From positions 2,280,001-2,312,000 of the forward strand of contig NZ_CP011034.1 in the NCBI RefSeq assembly GCF_001465295.1: 32,000 bases of DNA, in the 5' to 3' direction. The stretch comes from Pseudoalteromonas translucida KMM 520. Its GTDB lineage: Bacteria; Pseudomonadota; Gammaproteobacteria; Enterobacterales; Alteromonadaceae. The notes beneath the pieces are model-generated. The model was not told the DNA's origin. It did no database searches and worked only from the letters and a program-made list of their open reading frames with translations. How positions within the stretch are numbered: the first letter of the stretch is position 1; each line of letters opens with the position of its first letter. Made by a program: the position numbers and the translations under genes. Of the stretch, positions 8,798 to 32,000 are shown one piece after another.

Positions 8798-8948
8798 GCT
8801 GTATTAAGCCATAAACGCTGTAAGCTTTACCAACGTGCTATGCGCTTTATTACCTCAATAACTTTTACTGTGCCGGGCTTACGCTAACGCGGTGATCCCC
8901 CTCCCCTATAAAATATTTTACTAGAGAACATTTACTGGAACATTTAAT

Positions 8949-8996: not shown

Positions 8997-10196
8997 ATGA
9001 TAAATAAACTGCCCGTCACCGTGTTATCTGGTTTTTTAGGCGCTGGTAAAACAACCGTGCTCAGCCATATTCTTAATAATCGCCAAAGTAAAAAAGTCGC
9101 CGTTATAGTTAATGATATGAGCGATATAAATATTGATGCCGATACCATTAAAAGTGGTGTGTCGCTAAATCACAGCGACGAAAAACTCGTTGAAATGAGT
9201 AATGGCTGCATTTGCTGCACTCTACGAGAGGATTTACTTGTTGAAGTTGGCAAACTTGCAAAAGAAGGTCGCTTTGATTACCTCGTCATTGAATCAACGG
9301 GTATATCTGAGCCACTCCCGGTTGCCGAAACATTTACCTTTGCTGATGATAACGGTATTTCACTTGGTGATGTTGCAACCCTTGATACGATGGTAACGGT
9401 AGTTGATGCGGTTAACTTTTTAAATGATTACGAACAAGCAAACGATTTACAAGATACTGGCGAATCGTTAGGAGAAGACGACGAGCGCAGTGTCGCTGAC
9501 TTACTTGTTGATCAGGTTGAATTTGCCGATGTTATTTTAATTAGTAAAACTGATTTAATTACAAACGATGAATTAAATCGACTTACTGCCATTTTAAATA
9601 CGCTTAACACTCAAGCCAAAATTATTCCTATTTCAAACGGCAATATTAATATTAATGAAGTACTCAACACCGGCCTGTTTAATTTTGAGCGAGCCCAACA
9701 AGCTCCGGGCTGGCTTAAAGAAATGCGCGGTGAGCATATTCCCGAGACCGAAGAGTATGGTATTAGCAGCTTTAATTACACTGCGCGCCGCCCATTTGAT
9801 CCTGAAAAGTTTTATAACTTTCTTCATAGCACCGAACAATTTGGCAAGCTTATTCGCTCAAAAGGTTACTTTTGGCTGGCTACTCGGCCTTTATTTTGCG
9901 GGCAATGGAGCCAAGCAGGCGGTATTGCTCACTACGAATTTGCTGGCATGTTTTTTAAAGCCATCCCTCAAAAAGAGTGGCCTACAGAGCCCGAGCTGCT
10001 TGCTGACATAAATAATAAATGGGTAGAACCCTTTGGCGATATGCGTCAAGAGCTGGTGTTTATTGGTCAATCTTTAAATCAACAAGCGATGATTAAAGCG
10101 CTTGATGACTGCTTATTATCAGAAGATGCCGTACTTAAGGGTAAGGACTTTTGGAGAACCTATAACGACCCGTTTCCTATTTGGGAGGAAGAATAA
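8997..10196 (+). CDS. COG0523-family (CobW/ZigA/YeiR-like) metallochaperone GTPase
   Basis: Carries the P-loop [12 protein letters not shown], the metal-binding CICCTLRED (CxCC) motif and a CobW C-terminal domain. Confidence 0.9.
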
Positions 10197-17581: not shown

Positions 17582-17978
17582 ACTCTAAACTGTTGTTTGC
17601 CTGCTTAATGCTCCAAGCAAAACTTCGTAAAAGTGCCAAAAACAGTCATTCAGGTATAACTCGTTTCTGCTCCTTTATGAGTTAACGTAAATACTCTAAG
17701 GTCGCCTTTGAGCGAATACCGGTCATTGATATTGGCTAAATATCGTAGTTAATTGATTGGTCAAACTGTTGTTTGCGCACATATTCATGAAAATGAGCGA
17801 CGCGCGCATATTGGTTCATTTAACTTTACTTTAAAGCTTAAGAGACATAGTGATAGTAATATCTTAGGTTATTTGTTAAAACTATATTATATAATGTAGA
17901 AAAATGAATGTTTAGTCGGCAAAAATATGCATATGCGCGATGAGCGCACAATTAAATTATTAGGTAATTAGGGAAAAC

Positions 17979-19582: not shown

Positions 19583-19613
19583 AAAGACCCCAGCGTTTGC
19601 TGAGATCTTTTTA

Positions 19614-19762
19614 TTTACCCTCTGCCTTTTCGGCAGTTAAAAGTTACAATTTGTGGTTGTTTACTTCCCGGCCTAACTTCAGCTGCCTACTCGGCAGTTC
19701 ACACTTAGCGGAGTTGACGTCAAAAATTCTAAATATTTCCAGCTGCCTACTCGGCAGTTCAC
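19614..19762 (-). CRISPR. Type I-F CRISPR array with 3 repeats and 2 spacers, transcribed on the minus strand from a ~117-bp AT-rich leader below cas6f
   Basis: Minus-strand sense. R1 19762-19735 is GTGAACTGCCGAGTAGGCAGCTGGAAAT. Spacer 1 19734-19703 (32 nt) is ATTTAGAATTTTTGACGTCAACTCCGCTAAGT. R2 19702-19675 is GTGAACTGCCGAGTAGGCAGCTGAAGTT. Spacer 2 19674-19642 (32-33 nt) is AGGCCGGGAAGTAAACAACCACAAATTGTAACT. R3 19641-19614 is TTTAACTGCCGAAAAGGCAGAGGGTAAA, which is divergent. The repeat closely resembles the Tn6677 repeat GTGAACTGCCGAGTAGGTAGCTGATAAC as I recall it. Confidence 0.9.
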
Positions 19763-19879
19763 TATTAAAAATAGTTTAAATTCCTATAAACACCAAACTG
19801 TTAAACGTATTTAAATTATTTACCCTTATTTTTAATCAATCAGATAACTCATTGAAAATTAATGGGTGTTTTAAAACTA

Positions 19880-20482
19880 TTATAAAAGGGTATTTAAAGA
19901 AGGAACCGTACCTAGAAATATTTGATTTGTAGCAAAGCCATAATTGTTAAACTGATTTTTTATGGATTCAGCATTTTCATTTTTTTGTATATGCAAAACA
20001 TAACTTTGACCATTGCCTTTGCTTGATACGGGTATTGAATGAAAATGGCCTATGTCCTTTGCCTCAAATTTATATTCAGGGTTGTAAACTTCGCCTCTGG
20101 CTTCAGCTCGTTTTTTAGCTCGCTTTAATCGCCTTTGCTTTTCGCCAACAAATGCTTTTGCTACCGATTGGTTGCGAACAAACATGACTTCGCTTTGGTT
20201 TACTGGTACTTCAAGTATTTTTGATAAGCCAAATAACTTGTCATGAGCCATCATCTCAAAATAGCTTTGCTGAGATAGATTGGTTAATTGCTTTTTATTT
20301 GTTGATACAAACGCTAATTCATTACCTATTGTTTGCTCATTCCATTTAGGAAAGCACACACCAATATTACTTATTTCACGTGAGCTCATAAACCCATGCA
20401 AAATACCGATACAACGCCCAGCAAGAAGGCTTACATCACAACTTTGGGGTAAATAAGTAATGGTAAAATAATAGCGCTTCAA
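19880..20482 (-). CDS. cas6f: Cas6f (Csy4) crRNA endoribonuclease, CAST type
   Basis: 200 aa. The N-terminus MKRYYFTITYLPQ...CIGILHGF...NIGVCFPKW parallels the Vibrio Tn6677 Cas6 (MKWYYKTITFLPE...LHGF...NIGVSFPLW). There is a 4-nt ATGA overlap with cas7f, and the gene is followed by the array. Confidence 0.85.
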   Translation of the reverse strand: MKRYYFTITYLPQSCDVSLLAGRCIGILHGFMSSREISNIGVCFPKWNEQTIGNELAFVSTNKKQLTNLSQQSYFEMMAHDKLFGLSKILEVPVNQSEVMFVRNQSVAKAFVGEKQRRLKRAKKRAEARGEVYNPEYKFEAKDIGHFHSIPVSSKGNGQSYVLHIQKNENAESIKNQFNNYGFATNQIFLGTVPSLNTLL

Positions 20483-21507
20483 CCTTTACTCCTTTGAAAC
20501 AAGCCACCTTTGATCAGCACTGCCGCAATAAAGTGAATTGAGTTTGATTGTTCACTTTGCTCTAAACCATGCTTTTCCATGTGTTTAATATGCAAAGCAA
20601 TGCGCGGGAGTAATGAATAAAAGTCTGAATGGCTCTTAGGTGTTCTGTGTGCAACTAATATTTGCTTATCTGCGCCATACTCGTGAGTGCGTAAAGGTTT
20701 GTAACCTTCCTCATACCAATCATCAATAGTTTGGATAGCAGCCCCTACTTTTTGTGAATTCAAACTTGCTGCTTTTTTATCGCCTACTTGAGTATATGCA
20801 AGTTGTTTAGATGACATACCTTGTTCAACATTATCTACAAACTTTTGACTAGGATGAACCTCTTGGCTAAATGCATTTTTAATTTTTGCGGTTATATCTA
20901 AATAACAATAATTTTGAGGATTGCTTAGCCCTTCTTGAATAGATTCTGACAACGTTAATAATGCCGTTTGATTATTTTGCCAGTTGCCTTGCCATTTTAG
21001 TTTTTGTGCACCTTCAACAACAATCGGGGCTGCGTGCTCAGTAAGGATTTCAATATCAACATTTGGTGATTGGCGGTTACGCCAAAGCCAGTTGCCCATC
21101 AGTATATTTTTAGCATAGCGCGTTGCAACTTCATTAAGGCCATTGTGTTTTTTATAGGTTTCGAAAAACCGTTTTAACCAATAAATAACTTTAGGGTCAT
21201 CACATACATGTGGCTCAATACAATTAGCCTCAACCCTGAGTGAAAAACGACAAAATAGCTCATTTACCGTTGGAGGTACATAACACACATCAATTGTTTG
21301 AGGGTTTCCAAACGCGAGATCTTGTGGCGCTAAATTTTTAGCCACATTTTGCTTTTGATACGCATCGCCAAACCCTGACTTCTGCCCAACTAATTTATTT
21401 TGCTCTATTTGTAGCGGTTCAAAGTCAGACTCTGGTGTTTTATAAAAAAACACCGCTTTACTGGGTGAGAGCGAACGCGTGTAACTTAAGTGCCGAGGTA
21501 ATTGCAT
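20479..21507 (-). CDS. cas7f: Cas7f (Csy3) backbone subunit
   Basis: 342 aa. The N-terminus MQLPRHLSYTRSLSPSKAVFF and the C-terminus ..HFIAAVLIKGGLFQRSKG parallel Tn6677 Cas7 (MKLPTNLAYERSIDPSDVCFF ... HFLMANLIKGGMFQHKGD). Confidence 0.85.
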   Translation of the reverse strand: MQLPRHLSYTRSLSPSKAVFFYKTPESDFEPLQIEQNKLVGQKSGFGDAYQKQNVAKNLAPQDLAFGNPQTIDVCYVPPTVNELFCRFSLRVEANCIEPHVCDDPKVIYWLKRFFETYKKHNGLNEVATRYAKNILMGNWLWRNRQSPNVDIEILTEHAAPIVVEGAQKLKWQGNWQNNQTALLTLSESIQEGLSNPQNYCYLDITAKIKNAFSQEVHPSQKFVDNVEQGMSSKQLAYTQVGDKKAASLNSQKVGAAIQTIDDWYEEGYKPLRTHEYGADKQILVAHRTPKSHSDFYSLLPRIALHIKHMEKHGLEQSEQSNSIHFIAAVLIKGGLFQRSKG

Positions 21508-23558
21508 TATTCATACTCAAACTTAGACTTTTTCATAAGCATAGACTCTTTTTGAACATCCATAACCCAAAATGCGTCATGAAAGAACTGCTTAGCCCCT
21601 GCGTACTTTACTGATGTATTGCTAACACACTCTAACAGCCCAATTACGGGCTCTGCATAACAATGGTATTCATGTAATGCTGCATCTCGCTTTACGGGTT
21701 CTTCAAGCGCAGCCAAGCCAATTGCAGCGGGTCTTAAATTAAAGTTACTGTTAAGGGCATCAATTAATTGTTCAAAACTTTTAACTACTTTTTTTGAAGG
21801 ATATAACCAACTGCCATTTGACGATTTTGCTTTAAGTTTTTTAAACAGCTCGCTCGGTTTGGTATGTACATGGCACCAGTCAATATTTTGATATAACGAA
21901 GGTGGATGCATAGTCCCGCCTGCAAATGAAGACGGTAGTGCGGGCTTTATAAGCTGACTATTTAACTTATCTAACAGCTCAGTATTTGGTACAAAAAGTC
22001 TAAATACTAAATCGAGTGTTATGTCACATTTTGGTTTATCGATAATTCCAGATCTTATTACATGACTACGCCCTGCAACTTGTTTTAACTTGCTTGGCTC
22101 AGGTAATGGTTTACCTGTATGTAATTGATAGTTTTCAATGTAAATAGCACTGCCAATACACTTAATTGAAGGGTCTATAAAGTTTTTTAGCTTACGCTCA
22201 AAGTTATGAGCAAGCCCATTTAAAGCAGTAAGTGACGGCATGCCTTGAATATACGGATTAGCCATTGCCTCAGCATCAAACACTCGCATATCTTGGCAAT
22301 GTACATACACTATCTGCTCATCATTTAATATTTCTTGTTCAGCTGCACAGTGAGTAAATACATAGTTTAACTGCGCTTTAAACAGTCCCATTAAATTAGG
22401 GTGATACGCAAAGCGTTTGAGCTTACTTAAATTACCAAGGCTCTCATTTAGTACGTTACTAAATTGGCTAATACAGTTAGTAATACTCTGATCTAAGTAA
22501 TGCCTTACCCACTCAGGGTAAACTTGGTTTTGCGCGTTATTTTTAGCTTCAAGAATATTATCAAGCCATAACTGCAAGCTAACACGTACTTGCCTAATAG
22601 CCGCTACTCGCGCTAATCGTTTTTGCCTTAACGTATTAAACTGTTTAATGCCTACCAACACCAAAAGCGCCTGTTGAAATTGACTACTTAATAGCGCACG
22701 AATTTTAAATGCTTTCTCAATATCATTATTGGCTACTTTAGAGCGGTTAACAGCCTTTGAATATGTTTTAGGAAAGTAACGCAGCACTCTTATATTGCCG
22801 CCTACTGAGCTTGCTAAATCGCCAACATTGGCAGGTCTTGAGTGCTCAACTAAAGCAAAATTTAACTTACGATCTGTTGTTAATTGCTGAATTTTAGCCA
22901 GCATTGCGTGGCTTACTACAGGCGTAACCACAAGGTAGCTTTGCTGAAATGGCATTTGTAATTGTGGTGAAAAAGAGCTTACTTCTAATGGGAACTCTGC
23001 CACTGGCAACTGCTGTTTTATTTTACCCGAGATTTCTAAAACCGCCTTTTTAGTAAACCCGTATGCTCTTATTAAATTAATCCAAACAGGCTCTTCATTA
23101 ATTAACAGCCTTGCTAAACAAGTCACTTCACCTTGCCAATTAAACGAGGTTAAAAATAGCTTTGCATGATTAATTTCAGCACTGTTGTGCGACCAGCCAA
23201 AACTTAAAGGTAATGACCGGCTGCAAATGCCCGCAATATCTTCACTTACAACTTCACTAATTAAACGTTGATGGCTTACTCGTATATCGGGGTATTTTAA
23301 ATTATGAGTATGAAACCATTTCACTTCGTTAATGCACTTACTCAGTAACACTTCATCGCGTAGTACACTTTTAGCAGTTCTTGCACTTGTTAAATCATCA
23401 ATCTCACTTCGCTTATAAACAAGATTAATGAGCACAGTCAGCGCTAGTTCTTCAAAGCCATCTACCTCGACATGAGACGTGTATGGAACGAACAATTTTC
23501 TAAGTGCTGTGGTTTTTTCTTTTAGTGGTTCAATTGCAAGTGCATCTTGTAAGTTCAT
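21507..23558 (-). CDS. cas8f: Cas8f/Cas5f natural fusion (large subunit of the I-F3 Cascade)
   Basis: 683 aa. The N-terminus ..KLFVPYTSHVEVDGFEELALTVLINL.. parallels Tn6677 Cas8 (..RAFRPLTPHIAIDGNELDALTILVNL..). No separate cas5 is present. There is a TAATG overlap with cas7f. Confidence 0.8.
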   Translation of the reverse strand: MNLQDALAIEPLKEKTTALRKLFVPYTSHVEVDGFEELALTVLINLVYKRSEIDDLTSARTAKSVLRDEVLLSKCINEVKWFHTHNLKYPDIRVSHQRLISEVVSEDIAGICSRSLPLSFGWSHNSAEINHAKLFLTSFNWQGEVTCLARLLINEEPVWINLIRAYGFTKKAVLEISGKIKQQLPVAEFPLEVSSFSPQLQMPFQQSYLVVTPVVSHAMLAKIQQLTTDRKLNFALVEHSRPANVGDLASSVGGNIRVLRYFPKTYSKAVNRSKVANNDIEKAFKIRALLSSQFQQALLVLVGIKQFNTLRQKRLARVAAIRQVRVSLQLWLDNILEAKNNAQNQVYPEWVRHYLDQSITNCISQFSNVLNESLGNLSKLKRFAYHPNLMGLFKAQLNYVFTHCAAEQEILNDEQIVYVHCQDMRVFDAEAMANPYIQGMPSLTALNGLAHNFERKLKNFIDPSIKCIGSAIYIENYQLHTGKPLPEPSKLKQVAGRSHVIRSGIIDKPKCDITLDLVFRLFVPNTELLDKLNSQLIKPALPSSFAGGTMHPPSLYQNIDWCHVHTKPSELFKKLKAKSSNGSWLYPSKKVVKSFEQLIDALNSNFNLRPAAIGLAALEEPVKRDAALHEYHCYAEPVIGLLECVSNTSVKYAGAKQFFHDAFWVMDVQKESMLMKKSKFEYE

Positions 23559-23561
23559 AAG

Positions 23562-24743
23562 TTACCACGGCGCTATAAATTGTTTTTTTGTTAGAGGCTT
23601 TTCAGCTGCGAATGCTTGTTGTAGTTCAATCACTTGGCGTAAATAAAATACATGGCTATCAGCTCTGAGCTGTTCGTGCTTTTTTTGTGAATAAGCACAG
23701 TTTAAAAAGGCTTCTTGATGAAGCCTGTAAACTTGCTCTGTAGTAGTGTTTAACAATACTGCGGCATCAAAAGTACAAAGCAGTAAGTCACCAATATTTG
23801 GATGTTTAGCTTTAGGGTTACTATCAACTAATTCGACAAAATAACTAATAATCTCATCAATTACTTTGTTTTTCCGGTTACTTGTTGCAGCTATTTGACC
23901 ATCACGGATTAAATCGCCATAAACAGAGCTGAACTTAGTTTTATTAAAAGGGTTAAGTTGCTTGAGTCGCGCATTATTTGTGAGTAAATCTAATTCAGTG
24001 GTAAGGCTTTCAGGCCAAGTATTAAAGTAATCAACAAAAGCGCAGTTAAAGTCTGCATCACTTACATCAAGTTGCTTAACCTTCGCAAACCACGATATCA
24101 ACCCTACTATTTTTTGGCTGTTACTACTTGCAAGCGCAATTGCAATTTTAAAGTCTGCATCGTTTAACTGTTCACTATTGGTTATTTTACAACCGCAAAC
24201 ACACTCTAAAAACGCCTCAGAGGCTCTGTAATCAATTAAGTCATAGCACTCCTTACAACGTGTAATTAATTGTGACTTATGCTTATGACACGCCTTATAG
24301 GGCTTTAAATGCCAATAAAAGGGAATATGGGAAGATTCAGACAAGCATTTAATGCAAACAGGTATGTTATCAGTACGAAGTAGCTCAAGGGGAATAGCCA
24401 GTTCATTTCGACTTACTGCGGCAAGGTTGCCAAATTTAAAATTACTGCGCCTCCAAGCAAGTGCAAGAATGTCACCAGCGTTTACATCTGCTAATTGAGC
24501 AACCAACTTAAGCGCTCTTATTCTAAAGCTGCTCGCTTGCCTAGCATGATAAACATCAACTTTACTCAGCGCTAACGGCAGCGCACCTTCAAGCTCATTA
24601 TCTTGCTCTGCAAGCCATTGCCACAAAATATCAGCAAGCTCACTATAGCCATTGTATGAGTTATCCCTTGCAAGCCTCAGCAAATAGCTTTCAAGCGCCT
24701 CATCTGGGTAAGATTTTGTTTGAACTAAAAAATGCATCGCCAA
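23562..24743 (-). CDS. tniQ: TniQ (TnsD-family target selector of the CAST)
   Basis: 393 aa. The N-terminus P.EALESYLLRLARDNSY matches the TniQ fold signature (DESLESFFIRVA..NGY). Has a Cys-rich zinc-finger region (CIKCL...CHKH...CKEC) and a C-terminal ..APW. Lies 3 bp upstream of cas8f. The start may be the TTG at 24743 or the ATG at 24737. Confidence 0.85.
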   Translation of the reverse strand: MAMHFLVQTKSYPDEALESYLLRLARDNSYNGYSELADILWQWLAEQDNELEGALPLALSKVDVYHARQASSFRIRALKLVAQLADVNAGDILALAWRRSNFKFGNLAAVSRNELAIPLELLRTDNIPVCIKCLSESSHIPFYWHLKPYKACHKHKSQLITRCKECYDLIDYRASEAFLECVCGCKITNSEQLNDADFKIAIALASSNSQKIVGLISWFAKVKQLDVSDADFNCAFVDYFNTWPESLTTELDLLTNNARLKQLNPFNKTKFSSVYGDLIRDGQIAATSNRKNKVIDEIISYFVELVDSNPKAKHPNIGDLLLCTFDAAVLLNTTTEQVYRLHQEAFLNCAYSQKKHEQLRADSHVFYLRQVIELQQAFAAEKPLTKKQFIAPW

Positions 24744-24770
24744 CCTAAACTAAGAAAATCTTAGTTTAGG
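24744..24770 (-). promoter_or_regulatory. Perfect 11-bp inverted repeat CCTAAACTAAG aaaat CTTAGTTTAGG abutting the tniQ start (candidate Xre operator and/or RBS-occluding hairpin)
   Basis: Read directly from the sequence. The core CTAAG-N5-CTTAG recurs in the xre promoter at 29242-29256. A TTGACC -35-like hexamer lies at 24798-24793. Confidence 0.4.
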
Positions 24771-24811
24771 TTTAGATTAAAAGTAATACTTAGGTCAAGC
24801 TTAAAGAGAAA

Positions 24812-27800
24812 TTAATCTTTTGAAACATCTAAAACAAATATATCAATCAGCCCTACAAGATTTTTAGGTAAGTCATTTTCTAATTTTGCTTTAAGTTCAT
24901 CTGCGCTTTTCAAGCCATGCTGCTTTCTATTCGCTACCTTTTCTTCAGCCCCAAACCAAATAACAAGATAAATACCTTGTCCTTCAGCGTCAGGATGAAT
25001 TGAATATCTTTCAGCCAGTTGGTTTCCTGCTGCTGAAAACAGTTCTGTATGCCACTGCCCTTTAGCTTCAATCACAAGTAATCTTCGAATACCATCCATT
25101 ACTTTGGAGGCAGTAATATCAATTCTATTTTTATCTTTTGTTTGATGCTCTGCATTGATAACTATACTGTCTGCTTCTAAGCGAGGCTTCAAATAGTCTG
25201 CAATAATTTCTACTGAGCTAACTTCGTCAAGTCGAACTCCGCCTTGAGAATAAAAACGATTTCCAGGGTTAAACTCCCCACCTTTAATATCTTTTTGATA
25301 TTTATCTAGCTCATACAAGACTCTATCTCTAAGTCCTTCAACTGTAACAATCTCACAATTATCCAAAAGGTCTATAACCTTTGAAATATTTGGAGGAATA
25401 AAGTTTCTCATAGCTAAAGCACGAATTTGATTTGCTCTCATACTTTTAAGGTTTTGGCACATAACCTGAAAACGAGAGTCCTCAATTAACTGTTCAATAA
25501 TATGAATTGTTCTCTCAGAAGCGTCCAATTCAATTTGCCAAGATATATCAACCAGAAATCGATATGCTCTTTCTCCGTCAGGGCTAGAAGTGCCATATGA
25601 GGAAGGCAAGTTAACTTGTGGCCAATCTTCAATAAAGCGATCTAATAATAGATATATTTTATCACTAGATAAACTTGGAAAAGTATCGCGGCTTCCTGAG
25701 TTTAAACTACTTGATATTCCCTCGAATAAAAATATTGAGCTTTTCTTCTGAGTAAGGAAATTAAAAAGCTTTTGGGAATCGCATAAATTCAAAAAATAAA
25801 AAGCTCTTAAAAACCAAAATTGTATGATTTTCTCTTCAGACTTATCTATATGAGGTGACTCAATTCGACCCAGCCATTCATCGCAACGAATTAAGATCAA
25901 ACCTTTAAGCTGTTCTTTATCACCATAATGAACGGCTAAATCAAATAAAATATCCAACGCATAATAGCTCAGGCCAGAATACTTGTTTAACCACTCTAAG
26001 GGTAAATTGGCTTTAAATTCACTAAATATTTCATCGTCTCTTAGTACTTCTACTTCAGGGTGTTCGCATTTAAACTTGTCTAATTGAGGCTCAACATACT
26101 CTTTTAAGTAATTTTCTTTGGAAGTTACATCAGGAAATAACAAACGATCAATTTCACACTTAAGAAGACCACGTTCATCTTCAGTTACTGCGTCATAATA
26201 AATATTACATCTAGTTTTCACAGCAGTAAGTATTTGCTTACTAATATTGCCTAGATTCCCCTGCATACGTATTGTTTCTATACACAAAGCATACAAAACC
26301 GTTTCAATAAGTAACCACTGCGATAGACTCCTCAACTCAGCAAGTTTCCTTAAATCAGGTACGTCAGGAGCAATCAGGCTAGTGCAGTTTTTTAATGAAG
26401 TTCTCACCAGTTCTTCATCACCAAACTCTTTTTGTATATTTTCAGGTTCAAATAACAAACACTCTGAAAAATTAACTAACCACCCGAAATGCCCTCCAGA
26501 TTCGATTAAAGCGCGGTTTCTCTGAATAAAGCTAATGTTGTCTGCACGATTTTTGCTCTCACATTTTTTGTTCTTTCTATCTAGTCTATTAAACTTCGAA
26601 TTTCGTTTTCGTATCTGTAATCCAATAGAGTAATCTGTATTATTTGCTTTTGCCCACTCTCGCATAAATTCTAGCTTTTGATTAGCATGTTTACGCATGA
26701 TACTGCGTATCTGATTATTCAACTTGAGCTTATTATGCTGAAAGTAATAATGCCTCGTAATAAAAGTCGACCACAGTTCTAAATTGTTTTCTTCAAATGC
26801 TAAATTGATTAGGTATTCAATATCTTCAACGGAAAAACATAATCCAGAATGCGCACCGCAATATGGTTCAAACCTACTTTGTTTCAGATCGTAGATTTTT
26901 TTACGTTCAGTTATACCAGAAAAAGCGGTTTTAAAAAGTCCTTGTCTTAAGTCTTTATTTTCTCTGATTGCTTTTACAGACTTACAGAAATTATCACTTC
27001 CTTCCCTGTGATAATTTAAGTTTTTTAGCCATCCCCATATCTGTTCTGGGTTATATGGGAGGCTAGTAATATCAAAGTAATGATCGAGTAATTTACCTAC
27101 AAGCTTACTTATCCCGTCTCTACAAAAACACTCATAGTACTCTTTGCCACAACTGCAAGTTAACTCATCAGTTAAAAAATTTAATAATCGTTCTGTATTT
27201 TCAGCACTTAAAGTCCATACCAATTTATTGATGAAATATCGATTACCTTGTAACCGTCTATCATCTAGTGAGGTTTTTTCAGTAGGGTAGAGATTTGAAC
27301 ATGCTCGAAAGAAGCGTTTTAGTATGCCTAAATCAATAGAGTTAGCACCTAAGAATTCAATTCCTTTAGCTGCGATGTTTAGAGAGGTATTACTAGACTC
27401 AGATATTAATGTTTCGAGTATTTTAATATCATCAGAATCAATAAGCGAAAACAAACATTCCATAGCAAGCCTTCGAGTATCTAATCTCTCATTAGGTTCA
27501 AATAGTATGTTTATGAGATTGGGGGATAAGTGCTCAATAACCTGAGATTCTTTGATTATAGTTAATACTAAGTCTCGTAAATGCCCATCACTTTTATTTT
27601 CTAAAATTGGCTTAATATCTTCAGCCATATTTTTATCAAAAAAACCAACTGTACTGTATCGCCGCCAAAAATCACCTCTTCTAAAATACGGGTCATTTTT
27701 TTCAATTTGTGTTAACTGTGATAAAAGCAGCCTTTTAGATGAGCGATCAAGTTGTGAGGGGTCTCCATTAGCTAGCACAGCATAAGGATCAAGCTTTATA

Positions 27801-28852
27801 ATTTCATGTTGTAGCGCTAACCCGCCGAGAGTAGCCATCCAACCAAGCATTCCTCTCAATTCATCACGAACAATATTATTTGAAACTATTACTGTTTTAC
27901 AAACTCTTAAAGTTAGTGGATCTTGATTACTCTGTATTCGCTTTACTAAATACTGGGCGGCACAATATTCAGCAATAATTTTGTGAACAGCTCGATGCTG
28001 ATCAACATCATCTGCAAGTTTAAATAAGCGAGAATCTATAATGCTTGATAGATCTAAGCCCTCTCTTATTAGTGCATTAATATTGGGGTATAAGTATTCC
28101 TCTGATAAATCACTAACACTTACTCCTTCAGCACCTGATAAAAGAGTTTTAGAAAATACTTCTGAAGCGAGCTCTATTTTTTTCTTATACGCGAAATCTA
28201 TTCCAGTTCTTCTTTTTGCCGAAGGGTTAAGCTCTTTAGCTAAGTGCTCAACTGCTTTTTCAAAGATGGAGCTTTTACTTTTAAATTTTCGATTACTTTC
28301 AATGTAGGCATCTGCAAACATTTTCAAAAACTGAGGGTTCGGAAGTAAAACATCTAAATTAAAGCGTGAAACTTCTGTATAAAAATTATCAAAATCTTCA
28401 TCAGGCAAGTGGTGATCAAAAATCTTCCTTTGCTCTAATTCATTAAACTCCCTCAGCCTTAAAACCAGAGGAACACATTCTAAATACTCTATAACCGCTT
28501 GTGCTGAGTCACTGCTCCATTCACTTGAGCGACTTGATATTATTAAAGTTTCAGGTTTTGACTCTATGACTTTAGCTAATAATTTGTGTATACCACAGTT
28601 GTCAATCTTGGATAGTTCATCCAAGGCATCTATAACAAGAAAATCCCTAAATAATTTACTAGAATACAAATACTTGCTAGCAGTGACTGGGTTAGTATTA
28701 GCCTTACTTGCTAAGCTTTTAAGAAACTCAGTCTTACCAGCTCCTGGTTCTGCTAAAATAATTACACACTTAGAGACACTCAAGAGTTCATCTTCAGCAT
28801 AAATTTGCTCATCATTTTCAAGAGTACGCTGAAGATAAATATTTGAAGTCAT
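24812..28852 (-). CDS. NACHT-like STAND P-loop NTPase (1346 aa) with a helical/HEAT-like repeat body and a C-terminal PD-(D/E)xK-like nuclease-fold domain
   Basis: Walker A ILAEPGAGKTEFL (aa 31-44), Walker B FLVIDALDEL (aa 71-80), sensor-like LIISSRSS and NPQFLKMF. The middle is long and helical with HEAT-like segments. The last ~130 aa read ..INAEHQTKDKNRIDITASKVMDGIRRLLVIEAKGQWH.., which fits an E...D...ExK pattern. Confidence 0.75.
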   Translation of the reverse strand: MTSNIYLQRTLENDEQIYAEDELLSVSKCVIILAEPGAGKTEFLKSLASKANTNPVTASKYLYSSKLFRDFLVIDALDELSKIDNCGIHKLLAKVIESKPETLIISSRSSEWSSDSAQAVIEYLECVPLVLRLREFNELEQRKIFDHHLPDEDFDNFYTEVSRFNLDVLLPNPQFLKMFADAYIESNRKFKSKSSIFEKAVEHLAKELNPSAKRRTGIDFAYKKKIELASEVFSKTLLSGAEGVSVSDLSEEYLYPNINALIREGLDLSSIIDSRLFKLADDVDQHRAVHKIIAEYCAAQYLVKRIQSNQDPLTLRVCKTVIVSNNIVRDELRGMLGWMATLGGLALQHEIIKLDPYAVLANGDPSQLDRSSKRLLLSQLTQIEKNDPYFRRGDFWRRYSTVGFFDKNMAEDIKPILENKSDGHLRDLVLTIIKESQVIEHLSPNLINILFEPNERLDTRRLAMECLFSLIDSDDIKILETLISESSNTSLNIAAKGIEFLGANSIDLGILKRFFRACSNLYPTEKTSLDDRRLQGNRYFINKLVWTLSAENTERLLNFLTDELTCSCGKEYYECFCRDGISKLVGKLLDHYFDITSLPYNPEQIWGWLKNLNYHREGSDNFCKSVKAIRENKDLRQGLFKTAFSGITERKKIYDLKQSRFEPYCGAHSGLCFSVEDIEYLINLAFEENNLELWSTFITRHYYFQHNKLKLNNQIRSIMRKHANQKLEFMREWAKANNTDYSIGLQIRKRNSKFNRLDRKNKKCESKNRADNISFIQRNRALIESGGHFGWLVNFSECLLFEPENIQKEFGDEELVRTSLKNCTSLIAPDVPDLRKLAELRSLSQWLLIETVLYALCIETIRMQGNLGNISKQILTAVKTRCNIYYDAVTEDERGLLKCEIDRLLFPDVTSKENYLKEYVEPQLDKFKCEHPEVEVLRDDEIFSEFKANLPLEWLNKYSGLSYYALDILFDLAVHYGDKEQLKGLILIRCDEWLGRIESPHIDKSEEKIIQFWFLRAFYFLNLCDSQKLFNFLTQKKSSIFLFEGISSSLNSGSRDTFPSLSSDKIYLLLDRFIEDWPQVNLPSSYGTSSPDGERAYRFLVDISWQIELDASERTIHIIEQLIEDSRFQVMCQNLKSMRANQIRALAMRNFIPPNISKVIDLLDNCEIVTVEGLRDRVLYELDKYQKDIKGGEFNPGNRFYSQGGVRLDEVSSVEIIADYLKPRLEADSIVINAEHQTKDKNRIDITASKVMDGIRRLLVIEAKGQWHTELFSAAGNQLAERYSIHPDAEGQGIYLVIWFGAEEKVANRKQHGLKSADELKAKLENDLPKNLVGLIDIFVLDVSKD

Positions 28853-28904
28853 AGATTCTCTATATATACAAATTAAAGTAAGGTATTTACTCTTTAATTA
28901 AGCC

Positions 28905-29213
28905 TTAAAATATTTTGGAAGCTTTAATACTATCAAGCAGTTTCGCCTTATCATGCTGGTCTGCTTTACCCCATGCGCAAATTAATTCAGCCAAGTCATC
29001 TTCTTCACAATAAAAGTAAGCAACTGGCACATCTAGCTCTTTAGCTATGCGTTTCATGGTTAAAAAATCAGGGGCATGTTTGCCTTTTTCGTATTGGTTC
29101 ATGCGAGCACTAGCCGTGTTTGGCTCCATTCCTAATGCCATACCAAGCTGTTGCTGAGTAAGGCCAGCTGCTTTTCTTGCAGACTTTAGGCGTGAAGGTG
29201 TTGGAGTTTCCAT
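28905..29213 (-). CDS. XRE-family helix-turn-helix transcriptional regulator
   Basis: LKSARKAAGLTQQQLGMALGMEPNTASARMNQYEKGKHAPDFLTMKRIAKELDVPVAYF is a canonical Cro/C1 HTH_3 sequence. AAGG lies 6 nt upstream of the ATG. Confidence 0.85.
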   Translation of the reverse strand: METPTPSRLKSARKAAGLTQQQLGMALGMEPNTASARMNQYEKGKHAPDFLTMKRIAKELDVPVAYFYCEEDDLAELICAWGKADQHDKAKLLDSIKASKIF

Positions 29214-29241
29214 GTGAACCTTAGCTATAAAACATATCTTG

Positions 29242-29290
29242 CTAAGATTCTCTTAGTATCCAACCCATAAGTGTACTAAGGATATTTTAG
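29242..29290 (-). promoter_or_regulatory. Candidate Xre operators in the xre promoter: CTAAG attct CTTAG (29242-29256) and CTAAG gatat TTTAG (29276-29290)
   Basis: Read directly from the sequence. The half-sites and N5 spacing match the palindrome at the tniQ start. Confidence 0.35.
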
Positions 29291-29302
29291 TTTTTAGAAA
29301 AG

Positions 29303-30079
29303 TTAAAGATAATCTTTTTTCAGGCCGGCCAATCGAATTTTACTAGTTGTAAATTGTTTTGTAACTGAGTCAATATATTGATAAAGGCTGAGCTCAATTT
29401 CATCAAAGCTCGTTCGGTGTCTGTGCTCAATTGTTATACCAAATTCTTTCAAAACTTCTATTAGCTTTGTTTGATGGTTTGTATATTTATATCTTAAGTT
29501 AGTATCTTTAGCATCATTGTATCTTTGGTTTGAGTCCTCAATTACAGCTATTACGTCATTTAATTTTCGATCGTACAGTCTAAAAAAGTTAAATTTACCA
29601 CTTCTAGAGTCTGGGAACACTAAAGCATAATATGTATACAAATCAATACGTTCTGGACTTAACAAGTGGTCCCGTTCAATTTGAGCTGAACAGAATTCTG
29701 CAAAGTTACTTAAGTTGTTGTTATGGTTTGACATTATGCTATTTTCTAATGATAAAGCATACGTTTTCCACCCAATATACACACCCAATCCAGCTAGTAT
29801 AGTTCCAAATATAACAGTCAATTCTTTACTGAAAGATAGGGAATAGATGAACCGTTCATTAACAATTTTTAAACAAGAATTGGTTAAACATAATCCCCAA
29901 GTTAAGTTCTCATCATTGATAAATTCAATTGCAACGCCTATAACTAGCAACAACTGTAGGGAAATATAAAGTAAAAAAAGGAATACAAACCAGCTTTTAG
30001 TTCTAACGCTTAAAAGGTAATTCACCGAAATATGTTTTTTCAAATTGATAAATATGCTCTTAAATTTATCCAATGTCAT
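29303..30079 (-). CDS. Two-TM membrane protein, putative effector partner of the RT
   Basis: TM helices WFVFLFLLYISLQLLLVIGVAIEFI and LTVIFGTILAGLGVYIGW, followed by a ~150-aa soluble tail. I prefer the ATG at 30079 (AAGGA 9 nt upstream), which overlaps the RT stop by 14 nt. The track start at 30118 is a GTG with no SD. Confidence 0.6.
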   Translation of the reverse strand: MTLDKFKSIFINLKKHISVNYLLSVRTKSWFVFLFLLYISLQLLLVIGVAIEFINDENLTWGLCLTNSCLKIVNERFIYSLSFSKELTVIFGTILAGLGVYIGWKTYALSLENSIMSNHNNNLSNFAEFCSAQIERDHLLSPERIDLYTYYALVFPDSRSGKFNFFRLYDRKLNDVIAVIEDSNQRYNDAKDTNLRYKYTNHQTKLIEVLKEFGITIEHRHRTSFDEIELSLYQYIDSVTKQFTTSKIRLAGLKKDYL

Positions 30080-31250
30080 ATTTTCGATCCTTTGGCTCAA
30101 TTTCTTTAAGTCGCTCACTTATTTCGGTGTATTTATCTTTATATAATCTTTTTATAATTCCATTCATATAAACAACTAGGTTAAATCTTTTTTTGTACCA
30201 GTATTTCTCCCTATAACTATCAGGGTAGGTTTCGAGCTTTTTAATTATAAAAAAACAATGTTTTATATCAACTGCCGATGGCAATGGCTGAATATCACTT
30301 AAAGCGTTTTTAAAGTAGCCGTGTTTTGGATGCTTGACCCTTGCTAGCTTGTGAATGCGACCTAAACATCTATCAAAAGATCTGCGATAACTTCTGCTTT
30401 TCCTAAAGTTATTTTCTTGAGCTTTCTTTGTTAATGCATGTACTTCTGCTCTGATTTTTGCAATCTCTTTAGCAGGTAAACGTGGCTGGTCAAACTCAAC
30501 TCTAAGCCCGTGTACCATCAAGGGCTTTATCGAGCTATAAGACACCTCTTCTTTTTGCTCATTTATTGGCAAATCTTTTTGCAGAAGCATGTCTTCAATT
30601 AATTTTTTTGCAGTGTTGAAATTAAAATTAGAAGCTGTACTAGAAACGGAGATATCATCAATGAACCTAGTATAAGTAAGTCCCTTACGTTCTAATCGTT
30701 TAACCAGTAAGTGTTCTAAGTCAAAAAATATTAAGTTAGCTACATAGCTTGAGGTCAATGCGCCTTGAACCAATGTATTTTCAAAGCAACAAACATCACA
30801 TATGAAATCGGCTACTTCATTTGAAAGATCTAAAGTATTAACCAAAATATCTTTTATATGCTCTTTATGAATATTATCGAAGAAATCTGATATATCCATT
30901 TTTAAAAGGCTTTTTGCTCCACAATGCTTTTCAGCACATTTGATGTGGTCTCTGCTATCCTCAATTCCATTAATTAACTTTGGTATAGAACCGTATACAA
31001 ACTCAGGCCAAATTATTTTAGGCTTGAAAAAGCGGTTATTGATTCTTCTCTGAAATTTTCTGGTCAATTTATTAGGACATAAAACTCTTCTCTTAGAACC
31101 ATCACTTTTATATGCAGATTTAACAGGTTCACGATATCTAGAAGAGCTATTTGAGGATATAAAAGCTTCATAATCATCTTCTAAATCTAGAAAAGATATA
31201 AAGTTTTCAAGCTTTTTAATTGGGTCGCCTCGGTAATACTTAATTTCCAT
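30066..31250 (-). CDS. Reverse transcriptase, retron-type or defence-associated
   Basis: RT motifs 1-7 are present: RRVLCPNKLTRKFQRRI, LLKMDISDFFDNI (motif A), LVQGALTSSYVANL (motif B, QGxxTSP-like), YTRFIDDISVS (motif C, xxDD), INEQKEEV, and MVHGLRV (compare retron VTG). There is no endonuclease or maturase domain. Confidence 0.85.
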   Translation of the reverse strand: MEIKYYRGDPIKKLENFISFLDLEDDYEAFISSNSSSRYREPVKSAYKSDGSKRRVLCPNKLTRKFQRRINNRFFKPKIIWPEFVYGSIPKLINGIEDSRDHIKCAEKHCGAKSLLKMDISDFFDNIHKEHIKDILVNTLDLSNEVADFICDVCCFENTLVQGALTSSYVANLIFFDLEHLLVKRLERKGLTYTRFIDDISVSSTASNFNFNTAKKLIEDMLLQKDLPINEQKEEVSYSSIKPLMVHGLRVEFDQPRLPAKEIAKIRAEVHALTKKAQENNFRKSRSYRRSFDRCLGRIHKLARVKHPKHGYFKNALSDIQPLPSAVDIKHCFFIIKKLETYPDSYREKYWYKKRFNLVVYMNGIIKRLYKDKYTEISERLKEIEPKDRKYDIG

Positions 31251-31603: not shown

Positions 31604-32000
31604 TTATTTCCTTAACAACTGACTAATCGGCATCCGGTCAGTAAACTTGGTCGCTATAAACGGGTCTTCATCTTGAGAGCTTTCAGGCTTATAAAGTGAA
31701 TAGCGCTCGACTTCGCTTGCTGTTATTTCTGCTACAGGCAAGGTAAATAAATTAGGAACATCCGGAAAGAGTACCTCAAATGCTTTAACTAAATGCTTGG
31801 TTGTGAGAGTTTTCGCGTTGTCCATTAATGCATAAAGTACGGCATCATCTAAAAAGTATTTTAATGTTCTAAAGCAACCTTTTGATAATGAGAACAAAGT
31901 AAACACTGTTGCTTGCTCACTTAAGTTTGGCTTTTCGGCAAATGGCATACGGTTGGCTAGACCAATTATTAGTTGTACAAAATGCTTTGGGTTTTCTGAC
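31604..32000 (-). CDS. tnsC: TnsC (TniB-like AAA+ regulator of Tn7-like transposition), C-terminal part. The 5' end is outside the window.
   Basis: The frame stays open from 31604 to the window edge (..SENPKHFVQLIIGLANRMPFAEKPNLSEQ...). The C-terminal sequence is TniB/TnsC-like (..SKGCFRTLKYFLDDAVLYALMDNAKTLTTKHL..). Its position and orientation match tnsC upstream of tniQ-cas in I-F3 CASTs. Confidence 0.7.
   Translation of the reverse strand, partial: SENPKHFVQLIIGLANRMPFAEKPNLSEQATVFTLFSLSKGCFRTLKYFLDDAVLYALMDNAKTLTTKHLVKAFEVLFPDVPNLFTLPVAEITASEVERYSLYKPESSQDEDPFIATKFTDRMPISQLLRK

Follow-up and report, generated by a model that had tools for sequence, protein, structure and literature searches.

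Putative Operators Shared by an Xre-Family Regulator Gene and the tniQ-cas Operon in a Type I-F3b CRISPR-Associated Transposon of Pseudoalteromonas

Results

Organization of the Locus

The window studied here, a 32-kb stretch of Pseudoalteromonas DNA taken at its full length, includes a portion of a Tn7-like CRISPR-associated transposon (CAST) of type I-F3b. On the minus strand, the 3′ end of tnsC is followed by retron cargo, the xre gene, STAND-NTPase cargo, the tniQ-cas8-cas7-cas6 operon and a short CRISPR array (Table 1). The tnsC part is homologous to the TniB-family TnsC of one of the related loci (L019); the window does not extend to tnsA and tnsB. The xre gene is situated between tnsC and tniQ-cas with cargo inserted on both sides, its neighbours being a type IV retron (RT and 2TM) and the gene for a STAND NTPase, for which PADLOC gave no match. 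On the same strand, the STAND gene begins 52 nt beyond xre; it lies between xre and tniQ, which are 4.2 kb apart.

The genes of the tniQ-cas operon abut or overlap, and their products match Pfam TniQ, Csy2, Csy3 and Csy4. As the start of tniQ, the mechanical ORF caller chose the TTG at 24741–24743. Since complete TniQ homologues at ≥74% identity comprise 391–392 aa and the alignment consensus begins with MHFLVQ, we assigned the start to the ATG at 24735–24737.

Table 1. Coordinates of the genes and regulatory features in the window.
Feature	Position	Strand	Remarks
tnsC, 3′ end	31604–32000+	−	continues beyond the window
Distal operator (OL-like), putative	29276–29290	−	CTAAAATATCCTTAG on the coding strand; one mismatch (CTAAA); 19-bp gap to the proximal site
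Proximal operator (OR-like), putative	29242–29256	−	CTAAGAGAATCTTAG on the coding strand; exact; 28 nt between its end and the xre ATG
Potential xre hairpin	29214–29252	−	GAGAATCTTAGC (29241–29252, 3′ half of the proximal operator) pairs with GCTAAGGTTCAC (29214–29225), directly before the xre ATG
xre	28905–29213	−	102-aa HTH_3 regulator; C.Csp231I homologue; RtbC-type regulator of I-F3b CASTs
Predicted tniQ promoter	24769–24798	−	−35 TTGACC (24793–24798), 18-nt spacer, −10 TAAACC (24769–24774)
Perfect palindrome around the tniQ operator	24742–24772	−	31 bp; 14-nt arms and 3-nt centre
tniQ operator core, putative	24750–24764	−	CTAAGATTTTCTTAG on the coding strand; exact; the tniQ ATG follows after 12 nt
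tniQ-cas8-cas7-cas6 operon	19880–24737	−
tniQ	23562–24737	−	Pfam TniQ; first gene of the operon
CRISPR array	19619–19767

The Same Motif Precedes xre and tniQ

A preliminary description of this DNA, made from its letters alone, had pointed to identical half-sites with identical spacing before xre and before tniQ, and our search bore this out. The exact motif CTAAG-N5-CTTAG is present in the 32-kb window in two copies (24750–24764 and 29242–29256), while 0.08 are expected by chance and none of 100 shuffled sequences reached two. The position given for the xre copy, 29–43 nt upstream of the ATG (29213), was likewise correct. When one mismatch was allowed, five matches were obtained in the window versus 1.14 expected; the additional ones are the site at 29276–29290, which had been noticed as a weaker third copy, and those at 17696 and 18331, which fit chance. 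At up to two mismatches, the number of matches in the window (59) was at the chance level (60.8 expected), with none of the two-mismatch matches found at any further gene start, and a relaxed CTWAG-N5-CTWAG scan yielded no further credible sites. The motif with up to two mismatches is absent from the interval between cas6 and the array and from the array leader (19583–19879), which agrees with what is known of I-F3b elements.

The tniQ copy is the core of a palindrome that had been reported as a perfect one of 27 bp (24744–24770) touching the tniQ start codon. It is indeed perfect, but extends to 31 bp (24742–24772), and it touches only the TTG of the ORF caller, whereas the supported ATG lies 4 nt beyond it. 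Its 3′ arm contains the AGG of the Shine-Dalgarno (SD) sequence (24744–24746), and its 5′ arm overlaps the predicted −10 element.

Xre Is a Homologue of the C.Csp231I Controller Protein

The 102-aa Xre protein matched Pfam HTH_3 (E 6e-11), the PADLOC Control_protein model (E 6.5e-31) and, with residues 8–92, the Csp231I C protein in the PDB entry 3lfp (E 5.4e-26). The operator defined by the crystal structure of C.Csp231I has the sequence CTAAG-N5-CTTAG and occurs as a pair of sites spaced 18 bp apart; the bases of the CTAAG half-site are contacted by S32, Q37 and H43 (PMC4321490). In the alignment to 3lfp, these base contacts correspond to the identical residues S35, Q40 and H46 of Xre. Eight of the nine phosphate-contact residues listed in the same paper are also identical, the remaining one being changed from Ser to Thr, while the dimer–dimer contacts E83, K87 and N90 are not kept, their places being taken by Q86, A90 and L93. 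The recognition helix ASARMNQYEKGKH is unchanged in 20 of 31 Xre homologues, and nine more have one or two differences in it.

Sites and Distances Are Kept Across Genera

For comparison, we used 68 related loci (1.25 Mb) from many gammaproteobacterial genera. Of the 78 exact motifs in these loci, 75 are canonically placed, with 37 of them preceding tniQ and 38 preceding xre. The 37 loci with an exact motif within 60 nt upstream of tniQ mostly have it ending exactly 13 nt before the ATG, and this 12-nt gap is fixed in most loci even when TniQ identity is as low as ~35%. The distance is also kept where the upstream gene is unrelated, reversed or absent. In the loci that hold xre, the proximal site is exact in most cases and has a one-mismatch form in the remainder; in 25 of the related loci, two sites precede xre, 34 bp apart from start to start. 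Elements in which Pycsar, SIR2-HerA, Gabija or PDC-M62 replaces the STAND gene retain xre along with the three operators, and so do compact elements without any cargo.

Two cases were examined for a linked change of specificity in regulator and sites, and neither gave a clean one. The diverged Xre of locus L025 (H46R, K43Q) is accompanied by CTCACA-ATA-TGTGAG before xre, but by no matching tniQ site. The Q40H variants are linked to CTAAG-N5-CTAAG or to swapped half-sites at some positions, yet inconsistently, so they were not accepted as a specificity switch.

The comparison also bears on the tniQ promoter. A −35-like TTGAC/TTGCA is found 26–28 nt before the operator in loci with otherwise unrelated upstream sequences, and the best sigma-70-like match places the −10 hexamer 2–7 nt before the operator core in 30 of 47 distinct sequences. 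In a general promoter/terminator scan of 24500–29600, the tniQ promoter was not listed, nor was any terminator at the palindrome, so that our promoter call rests on the locus comparison; the predicted −10, TAAACC, is weak. From this promoter, transcription of tniQ is predicted to start near 24762, inside the operator.

Proposed Regulatory Circuit

Taken together, the data make it very probable that the three sites serve as operators through which Xre regulates both the tniQ-cas operon and xre itself. What we observed are the sites, their rarity, the homology together with the contact residues and the positions kept across genera; from these we infer that Xre binds, in which direction it regulates and where transcription starts. 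The earlier prediction that Xre autoregulates and represses tniQ-cas8-cas7-cas6 is thus supported by homology, by the locus comparison and by the literature, as is the accompanying remark that Xre-family control of the I-F3 guide-complex operon has been reported, namely for two I-F3b elements (Petassi et al. 2020).

Most probably, dimers of the C.Csp231I-like Xre would bind all three CTAAG-N5-CTTAG sites. The two sites before xre would form an autoregulatory switch; the analogy of orthologous systems suggests that the distal one would activate and the proximal one repress. Because of its mismatch (CTAAA), the distal site of this element might activate only weakly. A conserved sigma-70-type −10 element would precede the tniQ site by ~4 nt, placing the site at roughly +1 to +15, and for this reason bound Xre would block initiation at tniQ-cas8-cas7-cas6. 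As xre and tniQ are 4.2 kb apart with a cargo gene between them, it is plausible that the repression acts in trans on a separate promoter. On entry into an Xre-free cell, the element would then produce a burst of TniQ-Cascade, followed by repression.

RNA Hairpins and Alternative Explanations

As RNA, the tniQ palindrome gives a stable fold (−16.2 kcal/mol). Long arms of this sequence were seen in the Pseudoalteromonas clade only. In Enterovibrio and Veronia (L046, L050 and L051), which form a second, distant clade, arms of 14–17 nt surround the operator at the same position; their flank sequence is different, and they too cover the SD. Before xre, the 3′ half of the proximal operator may pair with the nucleotides preceding the ATG. 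Of 12 distinct related sequences, 11 retain this hairpin, with G–U pairs and compensatory changes. The pairing was scored by per-sequence folds tabulated by the position of the 5′ arm; RNAalifold on the MAFFT alignment of the xre leaders returned only operator self-pairing, as variable loops misaligned the 3′ arms. Rfam gave no match in the whole window at gathering thresholds, so that no curated RNA family explains the palindromes.

These hairpins raise the question of whether the tniQ palindrome acts mainly as RNA, a 14-bp hairpin hiding the SD AGG and lowering tniQ translation, either in its own mRNA or only in cargo read-through, where it would shield tniQ from transcription of the cargo. 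The stability of the fold, the coverage of the AGG, the similar arms in the Enterovibrio/Veronia clade and the comparable xre hairpin with its retained pairing all speak for such a role. However, the conserved promoter predicts a start within the palindrome, and for that reason mRNA from the tniQ promoter would be without the 5′ arm, and its AGG would stay accessible; moreover, the arms in most genera are only 5–8 nt long and fall short of the SD. Template switching during replication can perfect quasi-palindromes and lengthen their arms without selection, and the tniQ arms barely vary within the Pseudoalteromonas clade, which precluded a covariation test. On balance, we regard a mainly RNA-based role as unlikely. 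Of the earlier proposal that the palindrome sequesters the tniQ AGG as RNA, the part concerning read-through stands, for the AGG does lie in the 3′ arm and read-through RNA would form the hairpin, while the mRNA initiated at the tniQ promoter would not. A somewhat more doubtful extension covers both genes: when transcribed from upstream, the control DNA of tniQ (24742–24772) and xre (29241–29252 with 29214–29225) may fold so that the 3′ arm covers the ribosome-binding site, silencing translation only of RNA that reads through from the exchangeable defence cargo, with the genes' own promoters predicted to start inside or after the respective hairpins.

Two further explanations dispense with a shared regulator. 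The tniQ palindrome, a stable stem-loop located 40 nt after the stop codon of the STAND NTPase gene (24812) on the same strand, might be the terminator of that gene, its resemblance to the xre sites being incidental. This is very improbable, because the stem has no T-run after it and is not listed in the terminator scan, the exact motif–ATG distance persists whatever the state of the upstream gene, and the palindrome core is the very operator sequence of an Xre homologue. HTH regulators often accompany defence genes, and the STAND gene follows xre closely on the same strand, so xre might instead regulate this neighbour rather than the transposon, the tniQ site being a chance match. We give this even less credence, given that xre and the three operators are kept beside quite different cargo or none, and that so few exact motifs are expected per window by chance.

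Discussion

The control circuit published for I-F3b elements appears to be intact in this Pseudoalteromonas element, to which our analysis adds no new principle. It shows that the circuit survives the insertion of defence cargo on both sides of xre, and it supplies coordinates of operators, promoter and start that can be used for expressing or engineering this CAST: removal of xre or of the operator 24750–24764 should de-repress TniQ-Cascade. At both xre and tniQ, the ribosome-binding site is part of a conserved or recurrent hairpin, and these hairpins are candidate read-through insulators; if they do act so, they would insulate the transposition switch from whichever cargo inserts alongside.

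Although a homologue of the controller proteins, Xre has no restriction-modification system under its control. Like C.Csp231I and C.EcoO109I, it combines a homologous protein and identical base contacts with the identical operator CTAAG-N5-CTTAG, two sites of which, 18–19 bp apart, precede the regulator gene. Unlike in those systems, there is no adjacent restriction or methylase gene, a third operator serves a separate operon 4.5 kb away, and the dimer–dimer contacts are not conserved. The Xre of I-F3a elements (RtaC; VpxR in Vibrio parahaemolyticus) is likewise transposon-encoded; it regulates its own gene as well as repressing one component of RNA-guided transposition, following the logic of an expression burst on entering a new host. 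It differs in being a 68-aa protein of a C.AhdI-like family that recognizes another motif and acts on the atypical CRISPR array, at its promoter, instead of on tniQ-cas (PMC12150760).

The closest counterpart is the I-F3b Xre regulator, named RtbC (PMC11406308); a literature search on this acronym returned unrelated uses only. In I-F3b CASTs, two sites before xre and one before tniQ-cas were described, and EMSA and lacZ assays in the elements of Aeromonas salmonicida S44 and Vibrio sp. 10N.286.45.B6 demonstrated autorepression and tniQ repression (Petassi, Hsieh and Peters 2020; bioRxiv 10.1101/2020.07.02.184150). The present element has the same ~100-aa C.Csp231I-related regulator between tnsABC and tniQ-cas, the same two motifs before xre and one before tniQ-cas8/5,7,6 with none at the CRISPR array, and a similar short array with a diverged last repeat. 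Unlike in the tested elements, a type IV retron parts tnsC from xre and a 4-kb STAND NTPase gene parts xre from tniQ, the distal xre site has one mismatch, and the tniQ operator is placed inside a perfect palindrome reaching the SD. Since this layout was described and tested by Petassi et al., our interpretation is supported, and the kind of circuit to which it belongs is already known.

Shared Predicted Operators in the Window and in Related Loci

The exact CTAAG-N5-CTTAG motif was found twice in the 32-kb window, before xre and before tniQ, where 0.08 copies are expected and none of 100 shuffles gave two; this confirms the shared motif pointed out in the preliminary description. The genes discussed here are all encoded on the minus strand. 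With one mismatch allowed, a third copy appears at a 19-bp gap from the xre-proximal site. The earlier claim that the window holds no other copy stands for the exact motif, and additional one-mismatch matches at 17696 and 18331 are consistent with chance (expectation 1.14). The two-mismatch scan of the window was at chance level (59 found vs. 60.8 expected), none of its matches falling at the CRISPR leader or at the start of any further gene.

Coordinates of the features in the window and in related loci (L numbers) fetched via TniQ homologues
Feature	Coordinates	Strand	Basis or remark
Frame running past window end	31604-32000+	minus	TnsC C-terminus homologue
Type IV retron RT	30066-31250	minus	PADLOC RT_IV, E 2e-137
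Retron 2TM effector	29303-30118	minus	PADLOC 2TM_IV, E 3e-52
xre-distal site	29276-29290		one mismatch
xre-proximal site	29242-29256		exact
xre hairpin	29214-29252	minus	RNA folding
xre	28905-29213	minus	Pfam/PADLOC
Promoter-like site	28907-28936	minus	TTGATA-16-AATATT or TTGATA-18-TATTTT; consensus match only
STAND NTPase, 1346 aa	24812-28852	minus	Pfam nSTAND3 and NACHT, both borderline
Predicted tniQ promoter	-35 TTGACC 24793-24798; 18-nt spacer; -10 TAAACC 24769-24774	minus	sigma-70 scoring
tniQ palindrome	24742-24772		perfect arms of 14 nt each, 3-nt centre
tniQ operator	24750-24764		exact
tniQ	23562-24737	minus	Pfam/PADLOC
cas8, Csy2-like	21507-23558	minus	Pfam/PADLOC
cas7, Csy3	20479-21507	minus	Pfam/PADLOC
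cas6, Csy4	19880-20482	minus	Pfam/PADLOC
CRISPR array	19619-19767	minus	three repeats, period 60-61 nt; last repeat 75% identical
STAND NTPase relatives	L003 5886-9926; L009 5630-9145
Swapped half-sites	L046, L050, L051 (about 9940-10000); L033, L037, L059, L042, L044

With 22 aligned TniQ homologues as a query, we retrieved 68 loci from one-genome-per-species bacterial contigs, 31 of them with an Xre homologue within the fetched flank. These loci (1.25 Mb) contain 78 exact motifs: 37 just 5′ of tniQ, 38 5′ of xre and 3 at other places. Most loci, those of Pseudoalteromonas, Shewanella, Marinobacter, Photobacterium, Zobellella, Ferrimonas, Pseudaeromonas and Motiliproteus included, have a tniQ site that ends exactly 13 nt upstream of the ATG, and this position persists at TniQ identity down to about 35%, although the sequence farther upstream is unrelated between loci. 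The xre-tniQ distance varies from 72 bp to 9.4 kb, thus indicating that the site is tied to tniQ rather than to xre or the upstream gene. In 25 loci the two xre sites lie 34 bp apart, start to start, the proximal one ending 27-41 nt before the xre start. Taken together, the shuffles and the motif positions in related loci exclude a chance origin of the sites.

Several loci depart from this pattern. Elements of Psychromonas, Colwellia, Enterovibrio and Veronia carry swapped half-sites (CTTAG-N5-CTAAG) at the same position before tniQ, in Enterovibrio and Veronia within a perfect palindrome as long as 37 bp. A search of the 10 kb upstream in these swapped-half-site loci gave no Xre homologue at E 1e-5. 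Locus L025 has a diverged Xre (47% identity, H46R and K43Q) and another palindrome, CTCACA-ATA-TGTGAG, 5′ of xre (8927-8941); its tniQ upstream region has neither a CTAAG-type motif nor an inverted repeat with arms of at least 5 nt. An exact CTAAGCATTACTTAG inside cas8 of two close relatives (12231-12245 of L002 and L011), one mismatch off in several other relatives and missing at this point of the window, probably arose by chance in the coding sequence.

The Predicted tniQ Promoter and the Palindrome

Complete TniQ homologues of at least 74% identity measure 391-392 aa and their alignment consensus starts with MHFLVQ, so the tniQ start is the ATG at 24735-24737, with the Shine-Dalgarno AGG (24744-24746) 6 nt upstream. 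The preliminary description had placed a perfect 27-bp palindrome in contact with the start codon; the palindrome is indeed perfect but longer, and what it abuts is the TTG chosen by a mechanical ORF caller.

Nearly all loci have a -35-like TTGAC or TTGCA at 26-28 nt 5′ of the tniQ operator. Simple sigma-70 scoring of 47 distinct tniQ upstream sequences put the -10 hexamer between 2 and 7 nt ahead of the operator core in 30 of them, 19 of these with a distance of exactly 4 nt. In the window, transcription is predicted to start near 24762, inside the left half-site, so that the operator would span about +1 to +15 of the transcript, and bound Xre would occlude the promoter.

The RNA of the whole palindrome folds into a 14-bp hairpin (-16.2 kcal/mol) including the AGG, in agreement with the earlier proposal that it sequesters the tniQ ribosome-binding site. 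However, an mRNA starting near 24762 would lack the 5′ arm, and in folding it forms a 4-8-bp inner stem (-1.3 to -5.8 kcal/mol) that leaves the SD free, such that sequestration would occur only in read-through RNA of the STAND gene, whose end lies 40 nt 5′ of the palindrome on the same strand. A transcription terminator is unlikely: the palindrome has no T-run after the stem, was not listed by the terminator scan, and follows tniQ regardless of the upstream gene.

Long arms are confined to the Pseudoalteromonas clade, where every member but one has 11-14 nt beyond the spacer, whereas in most other genera the arms measure 5-8 nt (0-2 where the core is mismatched) and stop short of the SD. The distant Enterovibrio/Veronia clade (L046, L050, L051) has 14-17-nt arms of its own, ACACTCATAAACTTAG...CTAAGTTTATGAGTGT, with a different flank sequence and the SD again covered. 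At xre, the 3′ half of the proximal operator pairs with the 12 nt directly upstream of the ATG to form a comparable hairpin (-13 kcal/mol for the window sequence). Of 12 distinct related sequences, 11 retain this hairpin through U-G pairs and compensatory changes (A-U to C-G and C-G to G-C in L064). Long arms could alternatively reflect neutral perfecting of quasi-palindromes. Because of the second-clade arms and the conserved xre hairpin, we keep alive the reading that the hairpins may insulate tniQ and xre from read-through transcription.

Element Organization and Cargo

The frame running past the window end shares homology with the C-terminus of the TniB-family TnsC of L019, a compact relative with the row tnsA-tnsB-tnsC-xre-tniQ, and the closest TniQ homologues come from Pseudoalteromonas. 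Gene order, TnsC homology and TniQ homologues thus show that the window contains the core of a CRISPR-associated Tn7-like transposon of type I-F3. The diverged last CRISPR repeat matches descriptions of the att-targeting guide in I-F3b elements.

The type IV retron (29303-31250) separates the tnsC 3′ end from the xre operators; L011 carries this retron 5′ of xre too, with another system 3′ of xre. An Rfam search of the window gave no match. The xre-tniQ gap is a slot for swappable defence cargo in related loci: PDC-M62 (L001), SIR2-HerA (L002), Pycsar (L007), Gabija (L015) and, in L010, L011 and L013, ORF pairs sized like the Pycsar of L007. Here it holds the STAND NTPase, a candidate uncharacterised defence gene without a PADLOC match; the same family occupies this slot in L003, L008, L009 and L012, the L008 copy, split into ORFs of 810 and 531 aa, being probably a pseudogene. 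Xre as a private regulator of the STAND gene was rejected, since the same xre and operators flank Pycsar, SIR2-HerA, Gabija or PDC-M62 in relatives and also occur in compact elements without cargo (no cargo between xre and tniQ in L017, L019, L021 and L045).

In many loci the first cargo gene begins 10-110 bp past xre on the same strand, and for this reason it may be transcribed together with xre from the Xre-controlled promoter, like a restriction gene behind a controller gene. The promoter-like site inside the xre 3′ end, ahead of the STAND gene, is reminiscent of the C.Csp231I operon, in which the endonuclease has a separate internal promoter (PMC4824078).

Comparison with C.Csp231I and the Published I-F3b Circuit

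The 102-aa Xre matches the restriction-modification controller C.Csp231I (PDB 3lfp) with E 5.4e-26 over residues 8-92. C.Csp231I recognises CTAAG-N5-CTTAG with the A-rich spacers GAAAA and AAAAT, and its gene is preceded by two operators 18 bp apart; it reads bases through Ser32, Gln37 and His43 and contacts the backbone through Arg10, Gln17, Ser30, Arg34, Asn36, Tyr38, Lys40, Lys42 and His43 (Shevtsov et al., PMC4321490). In the 3lfp alignment these residues correspond to positions 13-46 of the window Xre and are all identical except Ser30, which is Thr33. Given these conserved contacts, the predicted specificity of the window Xre is CTAAG-N5-CTTAG. Of the 31 homologues, 20 share its recognition helix ASARMNQYEKGKH without change, and nine more differ by one or two residues. 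Read on the plus strand, the tniQ site has the spacer AAAAT, which is also the spacer of the C.Csp231I proximal operator. In the C.Csp231I promoter the proximal operator and the -35 hexamer overlap, and the mRNA is leaderless (PMC4824078); the 28 nt from the xre-proximal site to the ATG fit this arrangement, the hexamers here not being confidently placed.

I-F3b elements encode a C.Csp231I-related Xre of about 100 aa between tnsABC and tniQ-cas, with two motifs before xre and one before tniQ-cas; the purified proteins of Aeromonas salmonicida S44 and Vibrio sp. 10N.286.45.B6 bind these sites, and lacZ assays show that Xre represses its own and the tniQ promoter, the distal xre site acting positively (Petassi, Hsieh, Peters; bioRxiv 10.1101/2020.07.02.184150). 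A later review names this regulator RtbC (PMC11406308). In view of these binding and lacZ results, the Xre autoregulation and tniQ-cas repression first proposed for this window coincide with the published model, and both are supported by the C.Csp231I homology and the conserved site positions. What novelty remains lies in the hairpins over the two ribosome-binding sites and in the slots for defence cargo that flank xre. The comparison supports the view that the element is a further member of the published I-F3b circuit type.
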